This document shows, in pieces, positions 2,508 through 53,839 of a stretch of 64,000 nt of DNA. Below the pieces are notes generated by a model. It did no database searches and had not been told where the DNA came from. It saw only the letters and a list, made by a program, of their open reading frames with translations. Position 1 is the stretch's first letter. Each line of letters begins with the position of its first letter. Both the position numbers and the translations under genes were made by a program. Origin of the DNA: Escherichia phage IME267; sequence record NC_070983.1, one strand, 5' to 3'.

Positions 2508-2511
2508 GATA

Positions 2512-2532
2512 AGCCCCTTCGGGGGCTTTTAG
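2512..2532 (+). terminator. Intrinsic terminator-like hairpin (AGCCCC-TTCG-GGGGCT + TTTT) after tail fibre gene
   Basis: Perfect stem, UUCG tetraloop, T tract. Confidence 0.5.
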
Positions 2533-2596
2533 GAGTGAAACTGGTGAATAAGTAATGAAACTACTATATCCAAAAGGAAAATGAAAGGAGAAGAAA

Positions 2597-2815: not shown

Positions 2816-2848
2816 TTGACCTAAAATAACAACAAAAGGAGGTCAAAG

Positions 2849-3340
2849 ATGGACGCTATCGCATTGCCGCCTGTACAGATGAGCCTAAGTCCGGCTGGTA
2901 TGGAGTTTATCATGAAGCATGAAGGCATGAGAACTAAAGCCTATAAAGACTCCGCTGGAATCTGGACTATATGTGTAGGGGCTACGCGCGATATGAATGG
3001 GTATCCAGTAAGACAAGGATTAACGTATTCTATAGAGGATTGTCTAGCTCTGCTAGATAGAGACACACAAGACTCTGTTCGTGCTACTCAGAAAAACATA
3101 AGAGTTCCTATGCTAGCTCATGAATTTGATGCTGTCACTTCTTTCAACTTTAATGTTGGTGGTGGTGCTTTGTCAGCTTCAAAACTTAGGAAAGTGATCA
3201 ACGGAGATGTGAAGGGTGATGTTTACTCAGAGTTCTTACGTTGGGATAAGATAACTGTTAAAGGTGTAAAGCAGCGGAGTCCGGGACTTCACAATCGCAG
3301 GGTTGCAGAAGCAAATCTATACACTACAGGAAAATATTAA
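2849..3340 (+). CDS. Lysozyme (GH24, T4/lambda-R-like muramidase); probable endolysin
   Basis: Motif …EFIMKHEGMRTKAYKDSAGIWTICVGAT… matches catalytic Glu and Gly-rich region of GH24 lysozymes; RBS AAAGGAGG. Confidence 0.8.
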   Translation: MDAIALPPVQMSLSPAGMEFIMKHEGMRTKAYKDSAGIWTICVGATRDMNGYPVRQGLTYSIEDCLALLDRDTQDSVRATQKNIRVPMLAHEFDAVTSFNFNVGGGALSASKLRKVINGDVKGDVYSEFLRWDKITVKGVKQRSPGLHNRRVAEANLYTTGKY

Positions 3341-3352
3341 TGGAGGTGCCTT

Positions 3353-4156
3353 TTGGCTATCGAAACAACTGCGGTAGTAACTACCGATTTAAACCCCCTA
3401 TACCCACGGGACAGGGATTATCTTTATGAAGGGGCTGCCCAGATACGACTGGTCAAACAAGTATTAATTAACACCTTTCCTAACATCACAGAGCCAGTTC
3501 AACTTGACTCAGATTCTTTCAACATCTTAGCAAACAAGGTTTCCTTTACTGGAGATTCTATGGATGTTGGAGGTTTGATGATCAAAAACTTAACTCCGGG
3601 AACTGGTGATAAAGATGCTGTAACCAAAGGTCAGATGGAAGCTTTCATGTTAAACTGGATGCAGAATAAACTCTATCGTATTGGGGCTTACTATATCACT
3701 GAAGAAGATATCAACCCCGGAGATTCTAGCTCTCTTGGTTTTGGTTCTTGGGCTAAAGTAACTGGTGTTGTTATGGGTACTGGTGTTGTTAACCCTGATG
3801 GCTCTGTTCCTAATGCTCAGCGTGTAGAGTTCCAAGCAGGTGGTACTGGTGGTCGTGTATTTAACACAATTCGTGCTGACAACATGCCTCTGACTACAAT
3901 CAATGGTTCTAGTTTTCAAGTTAGTTCTTATTCTCACTCACATAATATCACAATGGGTCGTGGAGATGCTAGTGGTCACAACAGCAGTCCTAATTGGTAT
4001 AGTCCGGGTGGTGGTTATACTCAGGTAACTGACACTAACACCCACTCTCACTCAATTACAGGTTCTGTTAGTTTTGGACGTGATGATGTATCAAGACAAC
4101 CTATTAACACTTTGCCGCCTTTCAGAGCAGCGCATATCTGGAGACGTATTAGCTAA
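3353..4156 (+). CDS. Tail fibre-like structural protein
   Basis: Gly/Ser/Thr-rich beta-type sequence, fibre-like N-terminus; tight operon coupling. Confidence 0.4.
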   Translation: MAIETTAVVTTDLNPLYPRDRDYLYEGAAQIRLVKQVLINTFPNITEPVQLDSDSFNILANKVSFTGDSMDVGGLMIKNLTPGTGDKDAVTKGQMEAFMLNWMQNKLYRIGAYYITEEDINPGDSSSLGFGSWAKVTGVVMGTGVVNPDGSVPNAQRVEFQAGGTGGRVFNTIRADNMPLTTINGSSFQVSSYSHSHNITMGRGDASGHNSSPNWYSPGGGYTQVTDTNTHSHSITGSVSFGRDDVSRQPINTLPPFRAAHIWRRIS

Positions 4157-4165
4157 GGAGGAATT

Positions 4166-7100
4166 ATGGCGCTTTATCCAATAAAATCTTTAGGGGCTGT
4201 AGGGGTTATTGCTGACCAAGCTCCGACTGATTTAGCACCTAATGCTTTCACTAATGCTATCAATGCCCGCTTTGTAGAGCAAAGAGTTTTTAAGACGGGG
4301 GGCAATGCCCCTCTTTCTTATGTAGAAGAAGATAAAGAGATTACACCACTTTCTTTTATATCAATGCCTTTTGACTACTACAGTGCAGGTAATAGCTTTC
4401 TGATTGTTGGTACAGACAAAAAGCTATACAAGCTAACAGATGAAAGTTTGACAGATATTAGCCGAAAGGTTGCTACTGTCACAAAAAGAGCTTCCGCTTC
4501 TATTAAGATATATCCAGTTGTTTCTCAGATTGTTCCTAAAGAAACTTCTATTTCAATGAATTTCAATCAAACTAAAACCTTGGAAGTTTCTATTCTTCCT
4601 GAAGATGCTAACAACACAGCTTTAGTTTGGGAGGTTAGTAATTCTTCTTATGGTAAAGTAGAAGCTGACACCGAGAACCCTAAAACTGCAACCTTGACGT
4701 CTTATGAAAAAGAAGGGAATTTAGTAGTTACTGTATCAACAGCTGATAAATCTATTAGTGCTCAGATTGCAGTAAACATCATAGACGGTGATTCTGGTAT
4801 CTTCTTAAGTCAGGATACAATAACTGTCCGCAAAGGTGGTAACACAACGCTAACTGCTGTTACTGGAAAAACTCCTGTAACTTGGGTCTCTAGTAATGCT
4901 TCTGTTGTGTCTGTAACACCTAATGCTAATACACTGACAGCTACTTTGTCTGCTAATGGTGAGGGTACTGTAACAATAACTGCTGATAACGGAACTAAGA
5001 GTGCTTCTTGTCAAATTACTGTTATATCTCAGATAGACAGTATCACTCTGAGTCAGACAAGCGTTCAAATGAGCAGAGGTACTCAGTATGTTTTAACTGC
5101 TACGGTTAATCCTTCAGATGCTCCCAATAAAAACATAACTTGGACTTCCTCTAATCCTGCCATTGCCACAGTTTCTGGAAATAGTACAGAAGCGGTAATA
5201 ACAGGGTTACTAGCTGGGTTTACTGAAATCACAGCTGTTACTCAAGAGGGTGATAGATCAGCAACCTGTACAGTGAGAGTTGATTTAGCTGGGAGAATGA
5301 TGCGAACTTCTGCAATGGCTTTATCAGAACCTGTTGTAGATTCTATACAAGAAGAAGAAACCAATAATACTCCTATCGAATCAGAAGAGGTTTTATATTT
5401 TGTTAATGAGCCATCTGGAGTTGATACCTCAGGGATGTATGAAGGTAACAACTTCTATGATTACTCAAACGTCAATGATATGGAAGGTTTTGCACGAGCT
5501 GCACTTATGTCCAGCGATACTCCGTTGCAATCTTTATCACTAGATATCATCGATGCCTCTCTTGATGTTGGGGAAGATATTGTAATTACAGCCAATGCTT
5601 TGCCTGAGGGAGAGTATTTCTATCAGTGGACAGTGGACAAAGCAGGATATGTTTCAACCACATCTACTACCGGGAAATCTCTAAAACTGACAGCTATTCG
5701 TAAAGGTGAGATCAAAGTTACTTGTACTGCTAGTCAAATGACTCAGAAAGATTATGATGCTTTTGACGACTATCCTTGGTATCACACCATAATCTCTAAC
5801 TGTGCAGTGGCTACCACTCACTATGAAACACCACAGGTCAAAGAATTTGAATCTGAGTATTTCGTAGATCTTCCGGGATGGGGTGAGCAAACAGTCGTTG
5901 ATAATGATGGCAACCCTTCTGTTAAGAAATTTAACTGGAAGTGTGAGCGTATTCGTGCATTCAACAACAGACTTTTTGCTCTGAATATGAGGGAATCTAA
6001 TGCATCTGGTGTAACTACTCACTACCCTCTAAGACTTCGGTGGTCGAATTTCGCTAACGAAAACAAAGCTCCATCTCTTTGGGATGATTATGCTTATGAT
6101 CGTTTAACAACTTCAGACCTATCAGCAAACATTGTTGGTCAAACTGAGGCTTTGGAAAATGGGTACGCTGGGTATATAGATTTAGCAGATTCTAACGGAA
6201 GCTTGATTGATGTACTTCCTCTGAAAGATTACCTTTTTGTTTACACGGAGTTCGAAACCTACATTGGTTCTCCAACCAATAACACATATCAGCCTCTTAT
6301 GTTTAAGAAGCTGTTTAATGACTCTGGCATACTTGCTCCTGAGTGTGCAGTTGAAGTCGAAGGTGGACACTTCGTAGTAACTCAAAATGATGTGATCTTA
6401 CACAATGGTGCATCTAAAAAATCTATAGCATCTAACCGAGTCAAGAATCTTCTCATTAATGAGATCTGTCTAGTAAACCCTCTAGCTACTAGAGTTCACC
6501 TACACCAAGACAAGAAAGAGGTTTGGGTTTTATATGTAGGTCCGGGAGAGCCTAAAGAGAGTTTTGCTTGTAATAAAGCCGCTGTTTGGAATTATGAGTT
6601 TGACACTTGGTCTTTCCGTACAATACCATATGCTCAGTGTATTGGGTTAGTCGATCCACCAGTTCTTGAGAGAGGTCCAATCTGGGCAGATTTTCAAGAG
6701 ATCACTTGGGATGATCCCTCTATTAACCAATTAGTCTGGAGAAAGGATGCTAATAACTTCCGTCAAAGGATTACAATAGTTGGCTCTTTCCTGAAGGGAT
6801 TCTATCAAGTGGATGTTGGTGCTCTGGACTACATCTATGACAGAACCAATGATAGGATTATAGAAAAACCTTTAGAAATGAGGCTAGAAAGAACTGGTAT
6901 TGATTTTGATAGTGTCACTAACGAGTGGAATCAAAAACATATTAATAGATTTAGACCTCAAGTCACTGGTACGGGTACTTATACTTTTGAAGTCGGTGGA
7001 AGTCAATTCTCAAACGAGTATGGACACAATCACTCAACTAAAGAGTTTAGGGTAGGCTCAGATCGTCATGTATCCGTGAGACTGAACCATCCATACCTAT

Positions 7101-26815: not shown

Positions 26816-28663
26816 TTAGTGAGTATGATTCCAGTTTAATCCAATCTTACAATCTGATGCAAGAGGACATTCCATCTTGAGGTATTCCCCTGCTTTACGA
26901 ACACATTCTTCAGTGAGGGTACGAAGTTTGTTAACATCATCACGATGTACAGTGAACTGTCCTTCATCATGCATGTCAATAACCTTCGCACAACGAACAC
27001 CATCCCGCTCAATCCATTTATTGAGGAATAGCATTGCATACTTCATAACAATCGCCCCAGCGCTCTGTAAGAGTGTATTTAAGGCTTTATGGACCATAAC
27101 CTTTCCAGTTGCATCTCTTCTCATTGTAATACGACGTCCATCCACACCGTAGATGTATCCACTTTGCGCTTTCTCTGTCATACGTTCAATAAGGATTGCA
27201 ATACAAGGGTTCTCTGCTAAGAATCTTGCTCTCATGATAGCCCCTTCGTCAGAGCCACCACCTACAATACTTCCTAACTTAGCGTCACCTGCCCCATAGT
27301 TAAAGGCATATATAAACGTCTTAGCGTTATCACGAGTAGGAAGACCAGCAAGTTTTTGGTTATGTGAGTGAATGTCTCCTTCTAAAAGAATATCTCTGTA
27401 CATAACAGCAGAAGCTAGACCACGTTCAGCTTCTCGTTTCTTAGCCGGGTTGTTTTCTCGCTCTGCTTCAGCGAGCATCTCACGACATTCTTTAATAAGG
27501 TAGTGAGCTAGCATCCTCAGCTCAAGACCAGAGCCATCGTAACCTAAGAAGATTTCACGACCAGCAGGAACATAGAACTTATAGGCACCTACAGGTTTGT
27601 CTTTCTTGCCCGGTTTTCCCACTTCGTAGATAATGTTAGTACCCTTTCGTACGTAACACCCATCAGGGATATGGTTGGTAATGATGAAAGGATGGTTATG
27701 ACTATCGTCTGAGGAATAGTCAGATTGAAAAAGACTGCGGCACTCGTGACCAAACAAACCGCGAGAAGGAATATTAACAACAATGCGATGTTTAAAACGA
27801 AATGTCGGAGTAGCGCAGCTATTAGCTTCGGCGGACAACTTACCATCTTTACGTTCCTTGTCGATAAGCCCGCTAATCAAACCTAGCCTGTGAGCCGCTA
27901 CAACGCGTCTCTTAAGCAAACTTCCTACACCCCCTAGCTCACCCCCAAGCCCCTCTTCAAGAGTCTCCTCAAGGTTTGTAGGGGCTGTGGGCCACTTGTT
28001 TGATGTAGCCAAAGCTTTTTTGATTTCATCAAAGGTTACAGGTTTCTTCCTATTCGGATTAAGACCTAAACCACTGACGTAGGCTTTCATGTAGTTGACA
28101 GTGTGATAACGGAAATGTTTATCCAAAAATCTTCGGATATCAGCATCTATCATCTCCGCTGTCTGTTTCTCTTTAGCATTACCTCGAATCCAAGCAGAAT
28201 ACCATGCAGAGTATGTACCATACTTCTTCATAGCTCTACGGATTTCAAATGTATTCCAAGGTTTCTTAGAATAATTCCACTCTGGAGGTATGAAGCCCTC
28301 ATCCATCAAGGCTTCTTTAATACGTGCATCTTTCGATGGGTCGAAGTCTACATACTCAACGCAAGTAAACGCCCCACCGATATCTTCTCTTTTAAGACCA
28401 ACCCTATCGCAATAGAGCTGAGGCCACTTCTGTAAAGCACCTGATTTCTTAAAAGGCTTAGCATAAGTTGAACCATCCACCCGCATTTTAGGGAGGAGAG
28501 GAATCAGTTCTTTATCAATATTGACAATAATCTCTTTGAGAAGGTGAACAAACCACCGAGCGTTTCTTCTGTTGAAGTTGACTCCATGCTTCGCTTGTTT
28601 TGAGATTATATCAGCGACTGTCATCTCCGTTATGAAAGGTAACTTATCAGGGTTATCCATCAC
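26816..28663 (-). CDS. DNA polymerase, family A polymerase domain (no exonuclease domain in this ORF)
   Basis: Motif A …DGSGLELRMLAHY…, motif B …NAKTFIYAFNYGAG…, motif C …MHDE…. Confidence 0.85.
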   Translation of the reverse strand: MMDNPDKLPFITEMTVADIISKQAKHGVNFNRRNARWFVHLLKEIIVNIDKELIPLLPKMRVDGSTYAKPFKKSGALQKWPQLYCDRVGLKREDIGGAFTCVEYVDFDPSKDARIKEALMDEGFIPPEWNYSKKPWNTFEIRRAMKKYGTYSAWYSAWIRGNAKEKQTAEMIDADIRRFLDKHFRYHTVNYMKAYVSGLGLNPNRKKPVTFDEIKKALATSNKWPTAPTNLEETLEEGLGGELGGVGSLLKRRVVAAHRLGLISGLIDKERKDGKLSAEANSCATPTFRFKHRIVVNIPSRGLFGHECRSLFQSDYSSDDSHNHPFIITNHIPDGCYVRKGTNIIYEVGKPGKKDKPVGAYKFYVPAGREIFLGYDGSGLELRMLAHYLIKECREMLAEAERENNPAKKREAERGLASAVMYRDILLEGDIHSHNQKLAGLPTRDNAKTFIYAFNYGAGDAKLGSIVGGGSDEGAIMRARFLAENPCIAILIERMTEKAQSGYIYGVDGRRITMRRDATGKVMVHKALNTLLQSAGAIVMKYAMLFLNKWIERDGVRCAKVIDMHDEGQFTVHRDDVNKLRTLTEECVRKAGEYLKMECPLASDCKIGLNWNHTH

Positions 28664-33390: not shown

Positions 33391-33612
33391 TTATGCAGTC
33401 AACAGGTGGAGAAGGAAAGGAATAACAACAGAGAAAATTACCAGAGCAATGCTGCCATGTTTAATGGGTTTAGCGTCATTCGGGTTCTCTTTAAGCATCT
33501 GTTTCTGAGCTACATAAACGATACCGCCAACAAAAATTGCCCATACAGACCATACGATTGCTGAAAACATACTCATATCCTTATAAAGAAGTTCGCCCCA
33601 CCTCTTAAACAA
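33391..33612 (-). CDS. Small two-helix membrane protein (tandem paralog)
   Basis: Shared …IVWSVW…KENP…IK(L/H)GS…. Confidence 0.4.
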   Translation of the reverse strand: MFKRWGELLYKDMSMFSAIVWSVWAIFVGGIVYVAQKQMLKENPNDAKPIKHGSIALVIFSVVIPFLLHLLTA

Positions 33613-33633
33613 AGAGACAGGGCGGAGGTTTGA

Positions 33634-35216: not shown

Positions 35217-35750
35217 TTATACACCCTTAGATGCAACTACACCATTACTGCCGTTGTATCGACCCTTCACTGCATAAGAGTCATCACCAGCGTGAGAGTG
35301 TTCGAACATAACCATTTGACCAACACGCATCCCAGCACGAACTCGTAAGCTATGATTATGGGTAACGTTATGAAATTCAAAGGTTAGTTTACTGCTGTTA
35401 AACCCTGCATCAGCCCAACCAGCATGGAGGTGGTTTAAACCACAACGAGCCATTGAGGAGCGAAGTACAAACAGGCTTGAGATGTTATCTGGAAGGTTAA
35501 ACTCTTCCATTGAGTGCGCTAAGAAGAATTGCCCCGGAGTGATAACAATACCATCTTCAGGGATTTTTACTTCTTTCCACTTGAGGTTTTCTTTAGCATC
35601 AATGTCAACAATTCCGTCAGCCTGTTCTTCAACAAGGATAGTATCACCAATACGGATATCCACGCTAGCAGCGTTAACATATTTATGCTCCGCATCTAAA
35701 AAGCCATTATCAATAACGCTGTGTAATTCTTGAGAACCTAAAAGACTCAT
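35217..35750 (-). CDS. dcd: dCTP deaminase (dUTPase superfamily)
   Basis: …GLNHLHAGWADAGFNSSKLTFEFHN…GMRVGQMVMFEH… conserved core. Confidence 0.75.
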   Translation of the reverse strand: MSLLGSQELHSVIDNGFLDAEHKYVNAASVDIRIGDTILVEEQADGIVDIDAKENLKWKEVKIPEDGIVITPGQFFLAHSMEEFNLPDNISSLFVLRSSMARCGLNHLHAGWADAGFNSSKLTFEFHNVTHNHSLRVRAGMRVGQMVMFEHSHAGDDSYAVKGRYNGSNGVVASKGV

Positions 35751-37198
35751 GAGTTTCTGTCTCCTTGTACAGATGATGCCAAATTATTAATCATGTTACG
35801 AGCTGTTTCACGAGATAATGTAACACCTGCTAAGTTGTTATGAAGCTCACCAGATAGCTCACGAGCAGCAGCTCGAAGTTCTGTACCAAGTGTAGTATCG
35901 GAGTGAGCCAAACCATTACGACGACTATAAGGTCGAGGAGCTTCGTTAGCGTCATTAGCCAATGATGCAAAACCAATATGAGCAGCTTCACGAGCCGCTA
36001 TAGTTGACACTCGATCTTCCGTAGGGGTTGGCAAATCACCAACTTCTACACGTTCTATATCACCAGCACGTAGACCCTGAACGACTGAGCTTACTGTTTC
36101 CCATGAACGACGAGAACGCTGTAAATCACCCATTGACGGAGAAGGAATAGGACGAGCAGTTCCTCCTTGGACATGCCATGTACGAGTATCCATTCCAGAA
36201 GAGCGTGCACTACCAAAACTGCCAGTGAAAGTGTCACGAGGTGCCATTGTAGGAGGAACTGCGAATCTTTCCTGTTGCCAAGAATCGCGTCTGTTAGTTC
36301 CCGGAGTCCAAGGCTGCGTGATTGCTTCAGCACCTATAGTGGTTAATCCGCTAGACCATTCTGTCTGTAGGTTAACTTCCTCGTCCAGATAACTACGACC
36401 CCTTTCCTGAGGAATGTTTAATATAGTTTCCATCATCTTCAGGGTATAATGACGACGCTGATTCTGATATAAATTTACACCAGCCATAGGTCCAACTAAA
36501 TCACTAATCAGGTGAACTTCTGGCTCACCGAAAGCTCCCATTGCAAGGTGCATATATTCGATAGAACTGCTATAAACTGCAACAGTTGCTTCAGGCCACT
36601 TTTTGTGAACATACTTCATTTCACGACTAGATACCACAGGAATGTCACGAGTGTATGACATTGCAAACAAACCTTCGTTTGACACATACATGTCATCAAG
36701 AGACATGAACCCCTGACAGATCATAGGAAAGCGACGGCTTAAAGTATCCATATCCAAAGGTAGATTAATCATCATCTGGATTTTAACTTGATCAATCTCA
36801 ATTTCCAGAATCTCTTGGAAAGTGAAAAGTGATTCAGTATAGGTTGTTCCACTGATAGGCTGAACTAGTCGAGATGTGACTTGAAGTCCTTTACTCTCTG
36901 TCCAAGACAAGAAGTTGTCAAGGAACAGTGCAGCATTACTTACGTTAGCAGGGCTGTTTTCCTGACGAGTGTTCCAACGAAACCCTCCTTGAACTAGGAA
37001 GATATCAACATCATTCGGAGTTCTATTTTGAAAGAACGTATCACGGATAGCACCACCTGCAATAACAGGGTAGATACCATCAGGAACTACGTTATCTCTG
37101 ATCAGGTTACGAATCAGGTCAAGCCCTACACTGAGGGCTTCTCCTTCTTGAAGGTTTAATTCAGACAATGGAATCTTAATCATTTCTACATTTTCCAA
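35747..37198 (-). CDS. Pol-beta-superfamily nucleotidyltransferase (CCA-adding/poly(A)-polymerase-like head) with low-complexity C-terminal half
   Basis: …[24 protein letters not shown]… fits the GGxVRD…DxD head-domain signature. Confidence 0.45.
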
Positions 37199-37734
37199 TT
37201 TAGAGATGGGGGATTCTTATAATCAAATCCAGCCATTTGACAAAGACACATGTAAACTTTAACTGTCAAGTTAACGTCTTGCTCACAATAGGTGAACATG
37301 TCTTCAGTGAATGCGTCCCATGCCTCCTCCTGTTCTCCATAATCTCCTTTCAGCTCCCCAAGAAACTCGCCCCATTGTTTGAGGCCGTGACCACGAGGGC
37401 CATGTCTAGGGTCGCCTTTGGGGTATTCTGGACTATCACCAATACGGTCAGGCTTGAGATATCTACTCAGGCACAAAGTATCGAAGACGTTAAAGCGAAA
37501 AGGTATCACATGAGAATAAAACTTAAACAAAGCAGGAAGGTCAAAATCAATAATATTGTGACCTATTACTACATCAGCTTCTTTCAGTTTGTGTAGTGCT
37601 TCTTCAATTTGGTGAGGGCGATACCCCCACCGCTCTCCAGATAATACATCAAATATCCAGATACACCAGACATTCTGAATACCATCATAGAGATTATCCC
37701 CCTCGATATCAAACGCATACAGTTTCTTTACCAC
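37186..37734 (-). CDS. Stand-alone 3'-5' exonuclease (DEDDy/DnaQ-like)
   Basis: Exo I …FDIEGD…, Exo II …[12 protein letters not shown]…, Exo III …YCEQDV…. Confidence 0.65.
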
Positions 37735-39746: not shown

Positions 39747-40178
39747 TCAGTTACTGTCATCCTTCTCACCTGCCAGATATGCTGTCCAGTCACCAGATTC
39801 AACCAGAACATCTTGTTCTTCGTCGATGTGATAAATCCACGCTTCCACAGTTTCACCGCTGTCTAATAATACTGGAATCAGTGTACGCTTGTAAAAGGTG
39901 TATGGGTTATCATTACCACGATGACCTTCCAGACCGTCATATGGACCTTCCAGACCAGCTTGGGTTGTTTCAAAGACTTCTACACGAACAGGCTTACCAT
40001 TGCTGTCATGCTCCAAAGATACACTTGGGAAGTATGCTGTGCAATACTGATACAGGTTACAGTTGTTTACTGTCCACCCTTCACCAATAGACACACCACC
40101 TGCACGAGCATTGATAGCGTGGTTGTGTTGACCTTTACGAAGAGAACCATACGTTGCAACTAATACTTTATCAGACAT
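39747..40178 (-). CDS. Gamma-glutamyl cyclotransferase-like protein (AIG2/GGCT fold)
   Basis: N-terminal …VLVATYGSLRKGQHNH… is the canonical YGSL motif region. Confidence 0.6.
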   Translation of the reverse strand: MSDKVLVATYGSLRKGQHNHAINARAGGVSIGEGWTVNNCNLYQYCTAYFPSVSLEHDSNGKPVRVEVFETTQAGLEGPYDGLEGHRGNDNPYTFYKRTLIPVLLDSGETVEAWIYHIDEEQDVLVESGDWTAYLAGEKDDSN

Positions 40179-40182
40179 TACA

Positions 40183-40380
40183 TTACCTTTTGTTTAAAAT
40201 TTCTTTTGTACAAGAAGTCCCGTTACACACGAGAACTGTTTGAGTTATAGAATCGACAACTGTTACATGGCTGCCGCATTGAGTTATGATTTGACCTCTC
40301 CCTGAATCTTTAGAGATGCATTCATCAGCGGCGATCGCTGACACACTGAATAAGGAGAGTAAAAATAGAATCTTTTTCAT
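40183..40380 (-). CDS. Small secreted Cys-rich protein
   Basis: Signal peptide MKKILFLLSLFSVSAIA, then 5 Cys in 48 residues. Confidence 0.4.
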   Translation of the reverse strand: MKKILFLLSLFSVSAIAADECISKDSGRGQIITQCGSHVTVVDSITQTVLVCNGTSCTKEILNKR

Positions 40381-41311
40381 GGCTGCTTACCAATCATGTT
40401 GGAAACCAGAATATCCAGAGAAGATGATTGATCGGATTGGCTTTTCAGGGAATTCTTCAAAACATCCCTTAATGGCTTTCTTGGTTTCATCAGAAATTGA
40501 CTCTTTTTCACCAAACCAATATTCTTCAAAAATATCAGAGAAGATATAAGTTCGGTATCTTTCCAAGTCATAAAAACCTTCCACTGCACTTGTAACAGCT
40601 CTACTAATTACACTTGAAGCTACAGGAAATAAGTCACCGTGTTCCAGAAACAAGCACCAACGATCAAAGAGAGGAATCTCTTCATCTTTCAGAAGACTTT
40701 CTAACTCTTCCTTTGCCTCTTTCTTGTGCTTCTCAAAGAGGTTTTTGGAATACTCTACATCTAAGATACGACTTTTAAACATATCCAGTTTATTATTAAC
40801 CATTTTACAACCTCTAGTTAAATTCGAACTAGCCTCCTCTTTCGAAGAGGCTAAAGCAAATTATTCTACTTCGAAGTGTTTGATCACACCAGTCAGTACA
40901 TCAGATTGGAATGTACCAACTAGCTCTGTACCTCGGAAGAAGTTAACACTTGTTCCAAGTGATTCAAAGCGATCTGCTTGAATGTCCAGAGATTGAATAT
41001 TTCCTTCTGCTGACATTGTACGAAACATGATTGTGTATTTATTCACAGACTTGTTACTCCCTTATCTGCTTGTGCAATTGCGATGATACGCTCAGCACAT
41101 TCCATTGAATATTTATCACCTCGTTTGAGGAAGGTGATGATTGCAGAGAACTGATTACCAATCACTCTCTTATTTGTGATACCAAACTCTTCACAGAGTT
41201 GGTTGATAGCTTTACGAGAGCCTACAATCAGAGGCTCTTTTTCTTCGGTCATTCCACGGCTGATCAAATCTTCGATAGACAACATTACAAATTCCTTTTT
41301 GTTTAATTTAA

Positions 41312-42547
41312 TTACAGAGTTACTGCTACTTCGCTACCTTCAACATTGACAGACTCTAACTTGCGAGGGTTATGAATCTGGACTGGATTGACCGGAACGT
41401 TCCAACCACTGCGGTAGAAGTTACGACCATCACAGAACAGGATGACATTGGCAGACATTGCATTCGGTTGCAGGTTGTTGTGGACATGACGGATATTTGC
41501 AATCCAGTAGCCACGAGACAAAGTGTAGCCAGTAGGTGCATTACGAATAGTTTGAGTATTCATCTGACCTTCCAGTTGCATTTCTTCAGGAACCACATCA
41601 ACTGAATCAATCGGCTGTGCTACTTGTCCTTCCAGTGCAAAGTTTTCATCATCAGCACTTTCAATATCATCCACCAACTCACCGTCTCCATCTTCAATCG
41701 GAGTCTGGTAAACCACTTTATACTGAGGAGTATAGAGAGGGTTCTGAGCTTTAACAAACTCAAGAATGTTATGACGGTAGGTATCCAGAGTTGTACCAGT
41801 CAGGCCCGGTGCTGTATTAACTTCCAGTACCCACGCTTCTTGACCTTTGGTGATAATATCAACTGCACCGAAATCCAGACCTATTGATTCAACAGCTTTC
41901 ACTGCATTGATCAGAGAGGCGTCATTCGGAGCATCTGTGAAGGAGCTTGAGTAAACCCAGCCAGTGTGGTGATTACGAATATCTTCACGATAGTTAGGGT
42001 CTTCGCGATAACCATTGCGACGAATCTTCTTCTGAACATAGGTGATTACACCTTTGAACACATGGACACGCCACTCACGACGTGGGCCTTGAATGCCTTT
42101 AGTGTACAGTTCAGCTCGACCAAGACCATCACCCGGTTCTACAACAACAATGCCCGAACCAGAGTGACCAGTCAGCTCATGGCGCTCATACACAATATTA
42201 CCAGTGTTTGACCACTCTTGAGCAGTCTCTTGAACATCTGTGTATTCCACAGTTTTAACACCTGCTTGGTCCATCACGCTGAAAGCACGACGTTTGTTCG
42301 CTGCCATATGTAAGGCTGCGGTACGGTTAAGGACGGTTGCAGAACCAAAGAATGATTCAGGATAGCGACGGTTCCCGTAGTTAACAACCACATCACCTTC
42401 ACGAGAACGCCAGCGGCTATTCTCTGAAAGAAGACCCATCACGTTAGCATTGATTCGTTCATCACGGATAGTATCACTGATAGCAGATACTAGAGCGTTA
42501 ACAGAATCAGACGGGCCATACGGAAGAACACGGATACGAGTAGTCAT
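41312..42547 (-). CDS. ATP-grasp ligase, RimK-like
   Basis: …GHSGSGIVVV…, …EWRVHVFKG…, …FGAVDII…VLEVNTAPGL… ATP-grasp blocks. Confidence 0.6.
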   Translation of the reverse strand: MTTRIRVLPYGPSDSVNALVSAISDTIRDERINANVMGLLSENSRWRSREGDVVVNYGNRRYPESFFGSATVLNRTAALHMAANKRRAFSVMDQAGVKTVEYTDVQETAQEWSNTGNIVYERHELTGHSGSGIVVVEPGDGLGRAELYTKGIQGPRREWRVHVFKGVITYVQKKIRRNGYREDPNYREDIRNHHTGWVYSSSFTDAPNDASLINAVKAVESIGLDFGAVDIITKGQEAWVLEVNTAPGLTGTTLDTYRHNILEFVKAQNPLYTPQYKVVYQTPIEDGDGELVDDIESADDENFALEGQVAQPIDSVDVVPEEMQLEGQMNTQTIRNAPTGYTLSRGYWIANIRHVHNNLQPNAMSANVILFCDGRNFYRSGWNVPVNPVQIHNPRKLESVNVEGSEVAVTL

Positions 42548-42996
42548 TTTTAGATACCTTTTAGTTTAAGAATTTCGTTACGACAGGATTGAATTTTAGC
42601 TTCGATTGCCCAATACTCAGCGAACATTTCGTCTTCTTGGGCATCGCTTGGAGAGTCGATTAAGTTAAAAGCAAACGGATACAGCTTTCGCTGCTCCGTT
42701 ACCAGTTGTTGAAGTCGGAGTTGTTGATACTCCAGCATTGTCAGGTGAGGCTTAGCTCCCTTGCTTGACATGAGGCTCAACTTTAATCCCCTTCATTTTA
42801 ACATAGTCAGCCAACACGTTATTGATAACGGTTGGAAAAGGGATTTCTACTGGAGAGTCAACCAGCTTCCCAATACCTTCTTGCATCCACTTCTGGATTG
42901 CTCGGAGGTTATCACATCCTGTGCTTGTCATCGGAATACGGCGGGTAGTTACCACGTTATCCAACATCAGTTTACGAACTTCCATAACTATACCTC

Positions 42997-45030
42997 TTAG
43001 TGTTTACCTTTACAGTAATCTGAATTACAGATCACCCTGTTTTCTTTGTTCAGTGAGCAAGTTTCTGCATCACGCCACGGAATTTGTTTATAACAGACTG
43101 CACAAAACCCAATTGAAGTCCAGAGGGCTTTTGTAAACTCAGCTGTTCGTTGTCCATCGTAACTGACAACTGTTTTTCGGAGAGAGGTTGACTTTTCTGG
43201 AAATGTCTCCGCTTTCTCAGCGGGTACCTCCTTTGGGGCATTCTTTGGACCATAAACAGAGATGGCATAAGTATCACCACCACGTTTTTCCAAATACGAA
43301 TTAGGAACATCTGCAAGTGTGATGTCCCCTGAACGTTTTGCTGAGCTGACCATTACAATCATACGGCTAAGCATACGTTCATCAACACGAACAGCTACTT
43401 CAGGACGACGTGGGTTGGTTGTGTCTACTGCTTTAGTCCAAATATAACCTTCAGATAGAGTAACATTCTTTACTTTATCTTTGATTTCTTTGGAGCAGAT
43501 ATAACAAACGTCTTCACCACGAAGTTTACTCATTTCGTTGTCAAACTCGAAATCAGTCTTGACTTCACCACAGATAGCACATACACCCAAAGGCACATCT
43601 TCTTCCTCTTCAGAGGTTTTAGATAACGCTTCGAAGCATTCTGGATGCCAGTATGCCTGATAAGCAAACACAGCCTTACGAGCATCTTTCCAGTCAATGT
43701 GCTTATCACAACCACCACAGTCACCATGAGAGTGAGATTCCCAGAACTTACGAGTGACTTCTACACCATTCTTAGTGATGAAGGAGTCCTCTGCATCAAA
43801 AGGGATATCATCATCAAAATCAGCAGTAGTGCTTTGAGGCTCCTTATCTGTAGCATCAACAAACAGCCCTGAAGTTAGTACGAGGCGAATCATACTGTCC
43901 ACTTCGGAGATACAAGCAATCGTCCCGCGATATACTACCTTTGGGTTTTCAAGAGCCTTAAGATATTCATCTTTGGCTACGTTGTGAACATCCCCTTCGA
44001 CATACTCTTGAGCTTTATCATCGTAGATGTAACCAACCATCTTACCACGATCTGTGTTGTTATAAGCATGGAACTCGTGAGGAATAATATCCACACGACC
44101 ATCACGACGATAAGGAAGACCACGATCGGCAGCCAGTTTGTTCTGGTCTTCAATCGCTTTACGACGACGAATGTCTCCGCTTGTCACGCCGGGCTTGTCG
44201 TCTTTGTTTCCGTAAATGTCGCTTGTGCTGCTGCTTGATTTGTTTGTCTGTTGGTTCTGATAAAGAGAGGAGTTCGAGTAATAGCCGCCCCAGCGACTCG
44301 TTACCGTAAAAACCGGAAGCGTGTGCTCCACCTCTTGAACCAGAGTCATACGACTGTTAGACACATCAAAGATATACTCAGTTCCCACTTTACATTCGAA
44401 GTGGTCATTGATACGGTTCTTATGGGACTTAGAACGCTCTAAAATCCACATAAGCATAGCTTCTTCAGAAGCTCCAAACCAATCCAAACCACAGCGGGCT
44501 AGGTGGAAAGGACGCTCATCATTACGGATAATGTGAAGCGTGTTGTCTTTAGCATCATGCCAAATCAAAGTGAATGCACCATCCAGTTTTTGGATAGTCT
44601 CTGCTGCTCCAATGGTGTTAATTGAGTGGCAGATGTTTTCACTATCAACTTCGAAACGCTTACTGTCAGGAAGGAGATCTTGATCTAACAGGGTTCCATT
44701 ATGAACCAGAGTAATATCCCCGTGAGTAAATGGGTGAGCATTTCGAGCATTGACAGCCCCACGAGTGGCATGTCGGCTGTGACCAACAATCCACGAAGGA
44801 GGAACTACGTAGTTCGTAAGCCCTTTGGTAATATTTGTATATTCTGTCTGGAGCATAAAAGCATAAGAAGGAAGAGCTTCTTTATAAGAGAAGACTTGCT
44901 TTTCACCTTTACGCTGACCAAACACACCAGTTGAGTGCTGTCCACGGAAAACACCAGCATACAGAAGTTGGTTGAAAATGTCCAAATCTGCTGAGGTCAT
45001 GTTGCCGCCAGCTAATACGATACCACAAAT
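42997..45030 (-). CDS. Class-II glutamine amidotransferase-like (Ntn) domain fused to Cys-rich C-terminal region; probable ATT start
   Basis: CGIVLAGG…, …GHSRHATRG…, …NAHPF…, …VHNGTLLD…; C-terminus with several CxxC pairs. Confidence 0.6.
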   Translation of the reverse strand: MCGIVLAGGNMTSADLDIFNQLLYAGVFRGQHSTGVFGQRKGEKQVFSYKEALPSYAFMLQTEYTNITKGLTNYVVPPSWIVGHSRHATRGAVNARNAHPFTHGDITLVHNGTLLDQDLLPDSKRFEVDSENICHSINTIGAAETIQKLDGAFTLIWHDAKDNTLHIIRNDERPFHLARCGLDWFGASEEAMLMWILERSKSHKNRINDHFECKVGTEYIFDVSNSRMTLVQEVEHTLPVFTVTSRWGGYYSNSSLYQNQQTNKSSSSTSDIYGNKDDKPGVTSGDIRRRKAIEDQNKLAADRGLPYRRDGRVDIIPHEFHAYNNTDRGKMVGYIYDDKAQEYVEGDVHNVAKDEYLKALENPKVVYRGTIACISEVDSMIRLVLTSGLFVDATDKEPQSTTADFDDDIPFDAEDSFITKNGVEVTRKFWESHSHGDCGGCDKHIDWKDARKAVFAYQAYWHPECFEALSKTSEEEEDVPLGVCAICGEVKTDFEFDNEMSKLRGEDVCYICSKEIKDKVKNVTLSEGYIWTKAVDTTNPRRPEVAVRVDERMLSRMIVMVSSAKRSGDITLADVPNSYLEKRGGDTYAISVYGPKNAPKEVPAEKAETFPEKSTSLRKTVVSYDGQRTAEFTKALWTSIGFCAVCYKQIPWRDAETCSLNKENRVICNSDYCKGKH

Positions 45031-45107
45031 TTTCTAATCCACCTGAAGGGTAAACCCTTTCATCTAATTAACCTTTAAATGCGCCCTGTATAAGAGCGCC
45101 CGTTGTG

Positions 45108-46208
45108 TTACAGCAGTCGTTCTAATTGCATTTCCAGATGGTCTGGAATATAACCAGTGACGTTATCATCACTGCTACCTGATTCACGCATCAATGCAAA
45201 CATGTGACGAATTTCACGAACCGTTGCGATTCGAGTGCTTTCAATCTGAGGGGTGTAGTAGGTCATGATCTCTTCGTAGACACTGTTGGCATTACCGCGC
45301 ACATATCCCAAGAAACCATAGAAGTCATTCATATCACGTAAGTTGATAAGGACTTCACCATCAGGGCCAGTCTGTTGCACACGAACACGACCAACCAAAG
45401 TCACAGATTGCTCACGACAGAAGAGAATATCACGAGCAAGACGATACCCTTCAGTGAGATCACTGTCTCTTGGAGTATAGTCTAGGGGTAGATGTTGAAT
45501 CATAGGAGCGAAGCGCAGCTCATTCAACTTCTCAACATAAGCTTCATTGTCTAAATCTGCATATTCAACAGCCAGTTTCTTGAGAACCAAGAAGCGGTTG
45601 ACCAGATTCAGAAGTTGGCTCTTTTTCCACTTCGGCTCTGAGATACGGAACTCAACAGAACCAAATTGAGATAGAGGCAAAAGATTAAGGGAGGTATATT
45701 TATCCCAGCTATTAACAAGAGAGTGGAAGAAAGCTTCCCCGTCTCGGTTGAACGCTGACGAAGCATTCATAACTTGTGCTTGAACGACAGCAAAAGCTGG
45801 ACAGAAGTTGCTACGATAGCGATGGTATCCAGAACATTTGAACATCATCTTTTCATAGAACGTCCATCCAAGAATAACTTTCTTAAGGATATTACTATCA
45901 GCGTCACGCATATCCATATGAACGTGAGTGGAGCAGCGCCAAGTTCCCTCGGCTCCAGAATCCTGTACTGCTTCACTCAGATTGTTAATAGCACGAAGTA
46001 ATTCTTCACCGTTGTAAGGTCGTGCACACACTAATTCACAACCATCACGAAGAGAGCCATCTTCAGTACAAACCCACATATCAGCGTCAATATCAGTTGT
46101 ACCTTCGACTTCTAACTCAATACCAACACCACACTGAAAAGCAATACTTGGATGCGGTTCAGATAAGCGAGGGTTACGGTATCCAAAAACTTGTGCTACG
46201 GTTGTCAT
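45108..46208 (-). CDS. GS/GCS2-like carboxylate-amine ligase (amidoligase)
   Basis: …GVGIELEVEG… and …CSTHVHMD… resemble GCS2/YbdK-type metal-binding motifs. Confidence 0.5.
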   Translation of the reverse strand: MTTVAQVFGYRNPRLSEPHPSIAFQCGVGIELEVEGTTDIDADMWVCTEDGSLRDGCELVCARPYNGEELLRAINNLSEAVQDSGAEGTWRCSTHVHMDMRDADSNILKKVILGWTFYEKMMFKCSGYHRYRSNFCPAFAVVQAQVMNASSAFNRDGEAFFHSLVNSWDKYTSLNLLPLSQFGSVEFRISEPKWKKSQLLNLVNRFLVLKKLAVEYADLDNEAYVEKLNELRFAPMIQHLPLDYTPRDSDLTEGYRLARDILFCREQSVTLVGRVRVQQTGPDGEVLINLRDMNDFYGFLGYVRGNANSVYEEIMTYYTPQIESTRIATVREIRHMFALMRESGSSDDNVTGYIPDHLEMQLERLL

Positions 46209-46831
46209 AATGATTCCACCAACTCTACATTATATGATGACAGGTCTGAAGAAATATGCTTGAACTTCTCCAGAAGGTTTAAAGATTGACGACCATTGTC
46301 GCCATAACCAGCTTCAAGAAGCACGTTTCCAACGTAAGCTCCTTTGTAATAAACTTTTCCATCGACAGGGTTGATATAGATGAAACGAGTAACCAACCCT
46401 TCAAACTCTGGATTAAACAGGTTGTACACCAAATCACCCGGAATCGAACGTCCGAGAGAAGGTGGAGTACCACGAAGTTTATTCCCCATCAATCCTTTAG
46501 CTCGCTGACGAACAGGGTTGATATGGGTCCAGCTCACCATGTTATTACCATGCTGAAGGTATCCTACATCTGGAGACTCCAGAATGAGGCTGTGATCAAA
46601 CACTGGGATATTACTAACAATCTGACGTTCAAACTGACCTTCGGAGTTTTTAGTCCAGCGTTCCGCCTCAAACACTAAAGACATTTCAGCGTCGTGTGAG
46701 TAGTCGTCAATATCAAAGTTACCTTGCTGACGAACATCAAGCACATATAGAGGGAGGTTTTTACCATCAGGTGATCGCTGAGCAATCCATGTTCCACAAT
46801 AATAGTGTTGAAAATCTCTTAACAAGCTCAC
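46205..46831 (-). CDS. Hypothetical protein within the amidoligase cluster
   Basis: 208-aa ORF coupled to neighbours. Confidence 0.35.
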   Translation of the reverse strand: MSLLRDFQHYYCGTWIAQRSPDGKNLPLYVLDVRQQGNFDIDDYSHDAEMSLVFEAERWTKNSEGQFERQIVSNIPVFDHSLILESPDVGYLQHGNNMVSWTHINPVRQRAKGLMGNKLRGTPPSLGRSIPGDLVYNLFNPEFEGLVTRFIYINPVDGKVYYKGAYVGNVLLEAGYGDNGRQSLNLLEKFKHISSDLSSYNVELVESL

Positions 46832-46840
46832 AATATCACC

Positions 46841-47647
46841 TTATACAATCTGGAGTTTAGAGGAGAATTTATCCGCTTCTTTAACATCGTTACTGTTGAT
46901 GATGTTGTGAAGCTTTTCAATTGGAAGGCGAGAGTGAAGTGACATCAATACTTCCATATCACAGCCTTGAACAACCTTATCAACTTGCTCATAAACAAAC
47001 TTGCGGGTTGACTTCTCGCCAATCCAGAAGTTAGAAAGAGAACGATATTCAATGCCGTAATCCTTGTAACGAATAGCAGAAGCCTTTCCGTATAACTCTT
47101 TACGACGAGTGTCTTTATCCATGATCACAGCTGGCAAGGACAGGAAGTAATCACACAACACACCCAACATCATTTGAGTCTGACGACTAATTTCCAGCGT
47201 ACCAGCGACGCCAAGGTGAACGTGACCGCCAGCAGTACGCAGACCTTTGTCTGTCGCTACTGGTGAAGGGTTCTTTTGTCCAGTGAAGGCATTGAAATCA
47301 GGAGTACAACCAAATACAAAGGCTGACGGATGGAAAGATTCCAGCTCTTCTGAAGTGAACACATGAGAGCTAATCCCAAGTGCTGCCTCCATGCCACGTT
47401 CATTGAGAACTTTGTTAGTCAGATCAATACCACGCTGAATGTTATCATTAAACGCTTCAAACCCTTTCTGTGGGTTAATATCAAACTCGGCCAGAACGTT
47501 GTCTTCTTGAAGACGAACATCAGGAGCCAGATCAATTTTATTATCTTTAGAACAGCCCAGCTTACCAGCCACAGAGGTGATAATACCGGAAGCAGTACGA
47601 ACAAACATTTCAGGGTCAGAGCCAATAAGGAAAGCGCGCTTAGTCAT
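46841..47647 (-). CDS. Second GS/GCS2-like amidoligase-type protein (tentative)
   Basis: …IGSDPEMFV… and …GGHVHLG…; start set to MTKRAFL with GGAG RBS. Confidence 0.4.
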   Translation of the reverse strand: MTKRAFLIGSDPEMFVRTASGIITSVAGKLGCSKDNKIDLAPDVRLQEDNVLAEFDINPQKGFEAFNDNIQRGIDLTNKVLNERGMEAALGISSHVFTSEELESFHPSAFVFGCTPDFNAFTGQKNPSPVATDKGLRTAGGHVHLGVAGTLEISRQTQMMLGVLCDYFLSLPAVIMDKDTRRKELYGKASAIRYKDYGIEYRSLSNFWIGEKSTRKFVYEQVDKVVQGCDMEVLMSLHSRLPIEKLHNIINSNDVKEADKFSSKLQIV

Positions 47648-48590
47648 TGTAATACTCCACGAGTTCATCAAAAAGGGAAACAACACGAGCACCAGCTTCT
47701 TCTGGTGTCATTGAGGAAGGTACTGCTTGCATCAGACGTTCGATAAAACTTTGAACAGTAATTCTGTCCATACGCTGATCTAATACTTCTCGCTTGTGGC
47801 CTGCACAAGTTGACCAGAGACGTAACCACTCACTCATACTCTCATAATGGTCAGGGTCTTGGTCACGACGACGTGCCATACGACGGAGAACTCCATCATT
47901 ATGGTTTCGTACATAACCATCTCGGTTGTCATCAACACCGAATACATTCTGAACCCATACGTTTTCAGAAAATTCATCAGTGGTGCAAATTAATGGCAGA
48001 AATGCAATTGCACTCATGTCGCCATCAAAATAAGTCGCTGCTGACTCATCGGTTGAGTCTACGTCATTACTATAACACCAGCGACCAAAGAAGTTACGAC
48101 TTAAACCAGCTAAGCGTAGAGCTAAACCGATTCGTTGTCGCTTAAGCAACTCTTCCTTGTCTTGTACGCCTTCCTGAAGGAACTCCATTCCATTAAAATC
48201 ACCATCCAAATAGCTACGGATGGTCATTAGTCCAGTAAACACCTTATCTGCTGGATGGTTTCGAAGGTTCACGGCAATAGAGTTCACCGAAGTGACAGAG
48301 AACATATCTTTATAGCAAGACATTGAGTTAAAAATGTCTGTTGCTTCAACTAAAGCTCTTTCGATATCTTTAGCTGGTACGCCATAAAAATTGTGAGGCC
48401 AGAAGTTAATAACTTCAATTTCTGAAGTTCTGTCACGAAGGCTTGTTCGGTTACGACTTTCACCGTTAATGTCTGTAACAGAATACATGTGCATACAGTT
48501 AAAAGTACCAAAGCAAGCTCTTCCTTTGAACACTGACTCACCGAAATCCTCTGCCGGTGTTACCGGAGCAATCGATGCGGAGATTGACAT
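47640..48590 (-). CDS. Hypothetical protein within the amidoligase cluster
   Basis: 316-aa ORF, no recognisable motif. Confidence 0.35.
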   Translation of the reverse strand: MSISASIAPVTPAEDFGESVFKGRACFGTFNCMHMYSVTDINGESRNRTSLRDRTSEIEVINFWPHNFYGVPAKDIERALVEATDIFNSMSCYKDMFSVTSVNSIAVNLRNHPADKVFTGLMTIRSYLDGDFNGMEFLQEGVQDKEELLKRQRIGLALRLAGLSRNFFGRWCYSNDVDSTDESAATYFDGDMSAIAFLPLICTTDEFSENVWVQNVFGVDDNRDGYVRNHNDGVLRRMARRRDQDPDHYESMSEWLRLWSTCAGHKREVLDQRMDRITVQSFIERLMQAVPSSMTPEEAGARVVSLFDELVEYYND

Positions 48591-48598
48591 ATTCGCCT

Positions 48599-49816
48599 CT
48601 ATTTATTAAAGAATAATTTTTCCATAATGGTTTCCCACTCTTCTGAGGGGAGGGTTGAGAACCCGTTTCCGTGAAGCCTGTTTGTCATGCAACTAATAAT
48701 ATTGTACATGTTGTAGCTTCGGGTGGATTCTGTTCCATTGTTCCAGTTATAACCGAAAACAATTTTATCGAAGGAGGTTTTATCCGTAGTTACTTCTCGG
48801 ATAAACTCAACCAAGAGCGATTTCTCTGTGATGACCGCACGTTCACCATCTGGCAGATTGCAATACTGAGGAAGAAGGATTGGTAAGAACATCGAATTGT
48901 TCACTCGACAATCACGAACACCTTCACTGCGATAGATTAGGCTTGAGAAGTCTTCATCACGCAGGTGTCCTTCACCTTCAGTGTATTCACACTGTCGCCA
49001 CTTGGTCTGGCGAGGCTCAATCATTGTACTACCAACGCCTACTGTATACAGAGACGCTTGGAAAATACATGAATCGTAATCATTCCCTGTTAAAGCAACT
49101 TGCTCGTTGCCGAACACATCCACTGAAGAGTTAATCAGTCGGCTGAATGCAAGAGAGGCTAGTGGAGACCAACCTTTCTTATACATCTTGTTCAGCATTT
49201 CATACACAGCAGATTTTTCATCATCTGTATAGAATGTACGATTCAGCATCAGATAGAACAGAGCGCGATCAGCAGGACAACCATCAGTACAAACACCCAT
49301 GAATCCTACTTCATGCCATACCAGACATGAGTCAGAATCTTTATCCATGAATGCTTCAAAGGCTTCCATTACAGCCCTGTCAGTAACATCAGGACGGTTG
49401 TTTTCTTCTGCCCATGTTTCTACATGAGAAGGAGGACGAGGGTCTCCATTCTCCACCCCTTCGCGGAAATATTGAGTGGTAATAGGCTTTTTATCACCAT
49501 AACGTTTTACACCATAAGCGGGAAGGTGTGTACCAGAGTTCCAGATGTACTTAATTTCGGACATAGGCATCATGTTTTCGAGAACGTTCTCTTCAGCAGT
49601 GCCTTGACGAACCATCATATTTTCACTCCACACCTTAATGCGGATATTCCAGCCGTAGTTGCTGTCATACGTGTTATAATAATCAGGATCACCATCTTCA
49701 TCTTCATCATAATCACCACCCTGATAGTAACCTGCTTTCAGGAAACCATAACAAGGAGGCCAGACGGTTACAACATCATCTGATTCTTTCCAGCTTTGAA
49801 GTGTTACAGGGAACAT
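48599..49816 (-). CDS. Hypothetical protein within the amidoligase cluster
   Basis: 405-aa ORF with acidic Tyr-rich N-terminus. Confidence 0.35.
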   Translation of the reverse strand: MFPVTLQSWKESDDVVTVWPPCYGFLKAGYYQGGDYDEDEDGDPDYYNTYDSNYGWNIRIKVWSENMMVRQGTAEENVLENMMPMSEIKYIWNSGTHLPAYGVKRYGDKKPITTQYFREGVENGDPRPPSHVETWAEENNRPDVTDRAVMEAFEAFMDKDSDSCLVWHEVGFMGVCTDGCPADRALFYLMLNRTFYTDDEKSAVYEMLNKMYKKGWSPLASLAFSRLINSSVDVFGNEQVALTGNDYDSCIFQASLYTVGVGSTMIEPRQTKWRQCEYTEGEGHLRDEDFSSLIYRSEGVRDCRVNNSMFLPILLPQYCNLPDGERAVITEKSLLVEFIREVTTDKTSFDKIVFGYNWNNGTESTRSYNMYNIISCMTNRLHGNGFSTLPSEEWETIMEKLFFNK

Positions 49817-53763: not shown

Positions 53764-53839
53764 TGGTGCACCCTACAGGACTCGAACCTGTAACCAACGA
53801 CTTAGAAGGTCGCTGCTCTGTCCGTTGAGCTAAGGGTGC
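53764..53839 (-). tRNA. tRNA-Arg(UCU): tRNA-Arg (anticodon UCU), 76 nt with encoded CCA
   Basis: Hand-folded cloverleaf: 7-bp acceptor stem, D arm, anticodon loop CTTCTAA, T arm ACAGG-TTCGAGT-CCTGT, 3' ACCA. Confidence 0.8.

Follow-up and report, generated by a model that had tools for sequence, protein, structure and literature searches.

A putative class-II-derived nucleotidyltransferase of variant architecture, encoded among the replication genes of Escherichia phage IME267

Class II nucleotidyltransferases include the CCA-adding enzymes, which hold tRNA by means of their neck, body, and tail domains, and the poly(A) polymerases (PAP). Besides motif A of the head, further short motifs mark these enzymes: motif B, RRD, recognises ribose (PMC2910056), motif D, EDxxR, serves as the amino-acid template that selects CTP and ATP (PMC8563995), and the PAP signature of bacterial poly(A) polymerase I (PcnB), [LIV][LIV]G[RK][RK]Fx[LIV]h[HQL][LIV], is located after motif A and before the flexible loop (PMC2910056). 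The head itself is of the Pol-beta type, and the pattern of that superfamily includes a third, h[DE]h carboxylate on the adjoining strand (PMC7291057). Among phages, the described relatives comprise the Gordonclarkvirinae orthologues of PHROG 12715 (SU10 gp74, KBNP1711 gp076, LAMP gp73, and Bas87_0069), all annotated as 'nucleotidyltransferase', the small 'PolyA-pol head' proteins of Autographiviridae, and ORF223 of Vibrio phage ICP1. The present work concerns the corresponding gene of Escherichia phage IME267 (sequence record NC_070983.1), studied in a window that is the whole stretch of 64,000 nucleotides analysed. Judged by its sequence, the encoded nucleotidyltransferase is a lineage-specific, fast-diverging enzyme derived from class II, that is, of the CCA-adding/poly(A) polymerase type. 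The gene is already named 'nucleotidyltransferase' in RefSeq and in the BASEL collection and has been discussed in print; what is new is its variant architecture and its evolutionary behaviour.

The window region shares 97–99% identity with Escherichia phages vB_EcoP_HC-25922 and 101114UKE3, and about 92–95% with phages ECBP2 and SU7. By sequence the phage is a phiEco32-like podovirus of the subfamily Gordonclarkvirinae, most likely of the genus Suseptimavirus as judged from its similarity to SU7 and ECBP2. The open reading frame (ORF) list holds a 483-codon frame at 35747..37198 on the minus strand, the interval that an earlier note on this DNA had given. The frame exists, but the start assigned to it is 15 nt too far upstream: the TTG at 37198 lies within the exonuclease gene, 15 nt beyond an ATG at 37183. 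This ATG is almost certainly the true start, with a product of 478 aa, because only 2 nt separate it from the preceding exonuclease TAG, because the PHROG 12715 alignment begins at ORF residue 6, because annotated orthologues begin at the same site, and because M1 is an invariant column of the family alignment. The match to PHROG 12715 is full-length (E 9.8e-166; ORF residues 6–476 against profile positions 1–456 of 457). Residues are numbered hereafter from the Met encoded by ATG 37183, and the parts of the gene are as follows.

35747..37183, minus strand: nucleotidyltransferase gene, 478 codons plus TGA (ORF list, PHROG 12715, orthologue annotations)
36752..37183, minus strand: head domain, residues 1–144, a predicted Pol-beta-type nucleotidyltransferase core of the class II CCA/PAP type
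37004..37057, minus strand: motif A, residues 43–60, GGAIRD…DVD, with the putative metal-binding aspartates D58 and D60 (HMMER and hhalign to CCA enzymes)
36755..36820, minus strand: predicted beta-hairpin, residues 122–143 (DSSP strands 122–130 and 133–143), with E124, I125, and Q136
36335..36751, minus strand: lineage-specific alpha/beta subdomain, residues 145–283, confident in both AlphaFold2 models, with invariant P153, Y191, and K195
35750..36334, minus strand: C-terminal tail, residues 284–478, predicted disordered (predicted local distance difference test, pLDDT, <50; composition; ratio of nonsynonymous to synonymous substitution rates, dN/dS)

The evidence for a class II origin lies in the head. 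Across the window protein and 24 aligned representatives with 21–34% identity to it, the motif A residues G43, G44, R47, D48, D58, and D60 are invariant (25/25 sequences). The GGxxRD…DxD head signature described in the earlier note is thus borne out, as GGAIRD at residues 43–48 and DVD at 58–60. A regular-expression test for motif A (in class II enzymes, GGxVRD followed by DxD) matches all 25 family members and all nine class II controls, which include two phage enzymes of only 244–246 aa, and the hG[GS] and [DE]h[DE]h elements of the Pol-beta superfamily are both invariant in the family. The proposed relation to the Pol-beta/class II head is likewise upheld by profile comparison. The family profile matches the solved CCA-adding enzyme 6ibp (E 0.0023), and hhalign against a class II profile composed of E. 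coli Cca, PcnB, and seven phage CCA enzymes gives a probability of 92.6% (E 4.6e-7); the extension of this alignment beyond DxD, which pairs a helix with a strand, was disregarded. The nucleotidyltransferase shares its predicted head-domain fold with the CCA-adding enzymes in class II. On these comparisons, the CCA-like resemblance of the head exceeds chance; it has already been noted in published work and so is not new.

The resemblance is nevertheless distant at the level of single sequences. PF01743 (PolyA_pol head) gives weak, sub-threshold matches to 18 of the 25 members, the best at E 2.5e-4; for the window protein, the N-terminal domain reaches 12.2 bits, below the gathering cut-off of 23 bits, and the full protein has no match. 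No significant match to the window protein was found in Pfam, NCBIfam, or PADLOC. When hhalign was run with single E. coli Cca, PcnB, LKD16 gp16, or ICP1 ORF223 against the class II or family profiles, alignment was obtained over motif A only.

Beyond motif A, the features that define CCA-adding enzymes are gone, so that the class II reading of the protein holds for its derivation and not for those features. The motif B pattern RRD[FLY]TxN and the motif D pattern [DE]DxxRxxR are each found in 0/25 family members versus 9/9 class II controls, and the PAP signature is likewise found in 0/25. Instead of motif D, the family carries [RTK]-[DE]-x-x-Y-x-x-[KRV]-K, with Y191 and K195 invariant. A sub-profile comparison of family residues 118–205 with class II motifs B–D shows no similarity. 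A hand mapping of FPxxCxG and [DE]xxYxxKK onto motifs B and D is not claimed, as it rests on spacing and secondary-structure order only. The Pfam scan of the window protein revealed neither PF12627 nor any other domain, and residues 145–283 are alpha/beta in the AlphaFold2 model, not helical as in the class II neck. Moreover, a search with the E. coli Cca head retrieves 472 phage records of 27–66% identity, none of which belongs to the nucleotidyltransferase family. The only tRNA gene of the window, tRNA-Arg (UCU) at 53764–53839 on the minus strand, has its 3' CCA genomically encoded; a link to maturation of this tRNA was rejected, as the gene carries its own CCA. The CCA-adding or tRNA-repair role suggested earlier therefore finds no support: RRD, EDxxR, and the PAP signature are missing throughout the family, the body and tail domains are lacking, the family is absent from the phage Cca-head matches, and the phage tRNA already encodes CCA.

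The earlier note had also regarded some 400 residues after the head motif as unrecognisable and the C-terminus as low-complexity. AlphaFold2 applied to the family alignment gives a confident model for residues 1–285 (pLDDT 89.5; predicted template modelling score, pTM, 0.88), and the full-length model keeps residues 1–283, with residues 284–478 at pLDDT <50. The region formerly called unrecognisable thus contains a folded domain that reaches residue ~283, while the remaining ~195 residues are predicted to be disordered. Residues 1–283 are modelled as a Pol-beta-type head together with a family-specific alpha/beta subdomain, which occupies the place of class II motifs B–D and the neck. In the tail, residues 284–478, the amino acids R, A, S, T, and G are abundant, with no net charge overall. 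An argument against nucleic-acid binding based on the acidic core (isoelectric point 4.7) was dropped, since the head of E. coli Cca is acidic too.

The catalytic centre is less clear-cut. Position 124 is D or E in all 25 members and is followed by the invariant I125, which fits the h[DE]h pattern. By secondary-structure order, the Glu-bearing strand of class II enzymes corresponds to strand 133–143, in which the family has an invariant Q136. The catalytic Glu of that class II strand is Glu79 in the B. stearothermophilus CCA enzyme. The hairpin with E124, I125, and Q136 holds the candidate sites for a third metal ligand.

A comparison with class II structures (E. coli PcnB 3aql, T. maritima 3h37, human TRNT1 1ou5, and B. 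stearothermophilus 1miv) summarises the variant architecture. In the window protein, an insertion of ~40 residues separates DxD from the catalytic hairpin, the family-specific alpha/beta subdomain stands in for the neck, and the body and tail give way to the 195-residue disordered tail. The Gordonclarkvirinae orthologues have the gene position, the head, and the invariant residues in common with the window protein; outside the genus they are ~29% identical to it, and their tails are unalignable. The BASEL isolates Bas86–88 have the allele class of the window protein. The small 'PolyA-pol head' proteins of Autographiviridae (LKD16 gp16, fHe-Kpn01 Gp22, and gp28 of Pectobacterium phage PP47; PHROG 1614) are head-only relatives of 167–250 aa without the long tail. 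A structure search against viral models finds them at E 1e-9 to 1e-4 with template modelling (TM) scores of 0.5–0.6 on the target. They share motif A, their sequence similarity to the family spans ~40 residues only, and LKD16 gp16 retains a DYTLN stretch resembling class II motif B. The LKD16 gp16 gene lies between helicase and ligase, and in Pectobacterium T7-like phages the head-only gene lies between primase/helicase and polymerase (PMC7693777). One of these proteins, fHe-Kpn01 Gp22, proved toxic on expression in bacteria (PMC7291057).

ICP1 ORF223, probably of PHROG 10174, is a minimal head-only nucleotidyltransferase of 137 aa. It aligns with family residues 39–148 (hhalign probability 94.7%, E 6e-8) and shares with the family Y115, the VK[IF]Q[VM]M strand that contains Q136, and the P153-M motif; it differs in having Arg where the family has D/E124. 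The ORF223 gene (L029:5402–5815) has a genomic context other than that of the family and lies ~2 kb upstream of genes for phosphoribosyl pyrophosphate (PRPP) synthetase and nicotinamide phosphoribosyltransferase (Nampt). As for the defence nucleotidyltransferases (CD-NTase, MNT, AbiEii/MenT), no PADLOC match was found, and none is a closer fold match than class II.

The family is narrowly distributed. A HMMER scan of 1.84 billion representative proteins yielded only 29 clusters at E <=0.001, the family members are found in phages only, and a scan of one genome per prokaryotic species gave no relatives. Word-indexed searches, with the whole protein or its N-terminal domain as query, retrieved only relatives that are >86% identical, and the same type of search with E. 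coli Cca yielded close relatives only. One HMMER match, a repetitive protein of 3044 aa (P0045) with ten weak matches to residues 83–160 and scattered sub-threshold phage Pfam matches, was ignored as a probable assembly or prediction artefact. Family proteins range in length from 279 to 490 aa and vary mainly in the tail.

Within its otherwise conserved operon, the nucleotidyltransferase is by far the most divergent gene. In related loci other than the ECBP2 locus (L006), it is 27–33% identical to the window protein, versus 78–97% for the primase/helicase, 73–98% for the dCTP deaminase (56% in one locus), and 54–96% for the exonuclease. In round terms, the protein is about 29% identical from one genus to another, versus 80–94% for the adjoining exonuclease subunit and dCTP deaminase. 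Nucleotide identity drops sharply at the gene borders, from 70–90% to ~55% in the head and ~30% in the tail. Within the genus, dN/dS is 0.15–0.20 for the nucleotidyltransferase (0.04–0.09 for the head and 0.22–0.28 for the tail) versus 0–0.08 for the flanking genes. The tail is well conserved within the genus, with its last 28 residues nearly invariant, and is unalignable between genera. Since within-genus dN/dS is low and the tail is conserved, the protein is considered to be functional and constrained, and the substitution pattern indicates that the tail is coding and under purifying selection. The distance between genera exceeds what would be expected from the rate within the genus, which suggests that old allele classes have been swapped by recombination.

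Other genes of these loci also show signs of rearrangement. In Kuravirus-like metagenome contigs (L012–L015, about 2300–5450), the primase/helicase is split into two or three ORFs by insertions, and the splits fit the homing-endonuclease insertions mentioned by Humolli et al. (PMC11990801). In one of them (L014), the dCTP deaminase is 56% identical to that of the window versus 91–93% in sibling loci, which suggests cassette exchange there.

The gene lies between two neighbours with which it is translationally coupled, the exonuclease subunit upstream and the dCTP deaminase downstream.

37186..37734, minus strand: 3'-5' exonuclease subunit of a split family A DNA polymerase (Pfam DNA_pol_A_exo1); upstream neighbour
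35217..35750, minus strand: dCTP deaminase (Pfam DCD, E 1.6e-34); downstream neighbour

The TGA of the nucleotidyltransferase overlaps the ATG of the dCTP deaminase (ATGA). Pfam matches on the neighbours (dCTP deaminase, 3'-5' exonuclease subunit, and DnaB-type primase/helicase) confirm the location between dCTP deaminase and exonuclease/primase-helicase that the earlier note had given. Promoter and terminator signals inside the gene block do not exceed chance level. On the basis of gene spacing and overlap and the lack of internal signals, the nucleotidyltransferase is considered to be co-transcribed with the replication genes. The gene order, namely gamma-glutamyl cyclotransferase, primase/helicase, exonuclease, nucleotidyltransferase, and dCTP deaminase, is kept in 10/10 related loci from viral and metagenomic contigs. 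A strong terminator-like hairpin with a 13-bp stem (33594–33624, minus strand) lies just 3' of a DNA-binding protein gene and probably closes the transcription unit that holds the nucleotidyltransferase. The two parts of the family A DNA polymerase are encoded separately, with the exonuclease subunit at 37186–37734 and the polymerase subunit at 26816–28663, both on the minus strand and ~8.5 kb apart.

The surrounding DNA also bears on the possible role of the gene. Humolli et al. (2025) found Gordonclarkvirinae to be markedly resistant to restriction-modification (RM) systems with no known modification, and proposed the dCTP deaminase–nucleotidyltransferase pair as a possible route of DNA modification (PMC11990801). 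In the window, 631 six-base palindromes are observed versus 1079 expected from base composition. CCWGG occurs once versus 71 expected, EcoRI sites 5 times versus 20, GATC 118 times versus 237, and PstI and SacI sites are both absent versus 10 expected for each. Such strong avoidance of palindromes implies that the phage DNA has experienced restriction pressure. EcoRV sites show no depletion (22 versus 20 expected), and those of EcoKI and EcoP1I are also undepleted; because EcoRV sites are kept, resistance to EcoRV goes beyond site avoidance. These phages keep a thymidylate synthase gene, which argues against simple deoxyuridine-containing DNA.

Apart from this operon, the window carries a phiEco32-type peptide-ligase-like gene cluster at 39747–49816 on the minus strand, with members recognised by Pfam except where stated.

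39747–40178, minus strand: GGACT cyclotransferase
41312–42547 and 48599–49816, minus strand: large ORFs without a Pfam match
42997–45000, minus strand: class II glutamine amidotransferase
45108–46208, minus strand: Amidoligase_2
46841–47692, minus strand: COOH-NH2 ligase

Tentatively, and with chances that we put somewhat short of even, the protein is a template-independent nucleotidyltransferase that acts on RNA 3' ends and has lost the CCA-specific features. Under this proposal, a Mg-bound nucleoside triphosphate (NTP) would be held through D58 and D60, and its nucleotide would pass, untemplated, to a 3'-OH. The likeliest acceptor would be an RNA 3' end, so that host RNA, phage RNA, or the ends of tRNA would be tailed. 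The choice of nucleotide and acceptor may be set by the family-specific subdomain, particularly P153, Y191, and K195, and the disordered tail may recruit a substrate or partner. The rapid divergence of the gene suggests that the target is host-specific or defence-related and not a core component of replication.

Several points weigh against this proposal. A literature search found no biochemical study of any family member, and neither an activity nor a solved structure is reported for the family or its small phage relatives. The similarity to RNA-specific enzymes ends at the head and does not indicate the acceptor. The loss of RRD is equally compatible with the use of deoxynucleoside triphosphates (dNTPs), and the conserved place of the gene among those for DNA replication and dNTP metabolism points to DNA as much as to RNA. 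Furthermore, the third carboxylate is uncertain, and catalysis may be altered or lost: the expected Glu strand carries the invariant Q136, and E124, in whose place ICP1 ORF223 has Arg, is on the strand next to it.

A doubtful alternative is that the protein is a counter-defence or host-takeover enzyme which nucleotidylylates a host protein or small molecule, or makes or decoys a nucleotide signal. Rapid divergence would leave room for such a target. However, the protein matches no PADLOC model, it resembles CD-NTases, MNT, AbiEii, and Rel enzymes less than it does class II RNA enzymes, and no candidate target was found. Additionally, pairwise dN/dS is well below 1 and so gives no sign of positive selection.

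Action on the phage DNA itself, by covalent modification or 3'-end addition together with the replisome and the dCTP deaminase and in aid of RM resistance, is also considered unlikely. The invariant place of the gene between the polymerase exonuclease subunit and the dCTP deaminase, with translational coupling, would suit this role, and so would the small relatives that adjoin helicase, ligase, or polymerase genes. The loss of the ribose-sensing RRD would permit the use of dNTPs, and with EcoRV sites undepleted, avoidance alone cannot explain EcoRV resistance. Against it stand the class II RNA enzymes as the nearest matches of the head and a divergence that speaks for a target outside core replication.

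A genuine CCA-adding or tRNA 3'-end repair enzyme, restoring ends damaged by host nucleases, is very improbable. By motif A and head fold the protein comes nearest to the CCA-adding enzymes in class II, the phage has a tRNA-Arg gene, many phages encode true CCA enzymes, and tRNA 3' ends are targeted by bacterial immunity, for example by Cas12a3 (PMC12851939). These points are outweighed by the absence of RRD and EDxxR from every family member when all controls have them, by the sub-threshold PF01743 score, and by a disordered C-terminus in place of body and tail domains. The phage tRNA already encodes CCA and the host has its own Cca; moreover, a substrate as conserved as tRNA leaves the 29% identity between genera unexplained.

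The weakest reading, and a highly improbable one, is that the protein has no catalytic activity and serves the replication complex as a nucleotide binder or scaffold, with just the NTP-binding motif preserved: the canonical triad would be broken if Q136 replaces the class II catalytic Glu, as secondary-structure order has it, and the long disordered tail, conserved C-terminus, and replisome coupling would suit an adaptor, but the invariance of GG, RD, and both aspartates at 21–34% identity is hard to explain without metal-nucleotide chemistry, the conserved D/E124 may supply the third ligand, and a scaffold whose partners are conserved would be expected to be conserved as well.

Gordonclarkvirinae phages are common therapeutic candidates against E. 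coli, and the nucleotidyltransferase is one of only two RM-resistance candidates named by the authors of that study (PMC11990801). It is quite unlikely, on our assessment, that the protein is the factor behind the unexplained anti-restriction or anti-defence capacity of Gordonclarkvirinae, coupled to the replisome and with its acceptor switched to phage DNA or a host immune component. If this were true, nucleotidylylation of the acceptor would account for the broad RM resistance of these phages, and the allele classes would have been swapped between genera under host pressure. For the preferred reading of an RNA 3'-end enzyme, and for the others, the verdict that this is not a CCA enzyme shifts the useful assays to a broad choice of acceptors and nucleotides, beyond tRNA repair. 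The same question extends to the many small 'PolyA-pol head' genes in T7-like and phiKMV-like replication modules. Knowledge of the activity would assign a function to this recurrent class of phage genes, and would show a tRNA-maturation enzyme that has been stripped down and repurposed.

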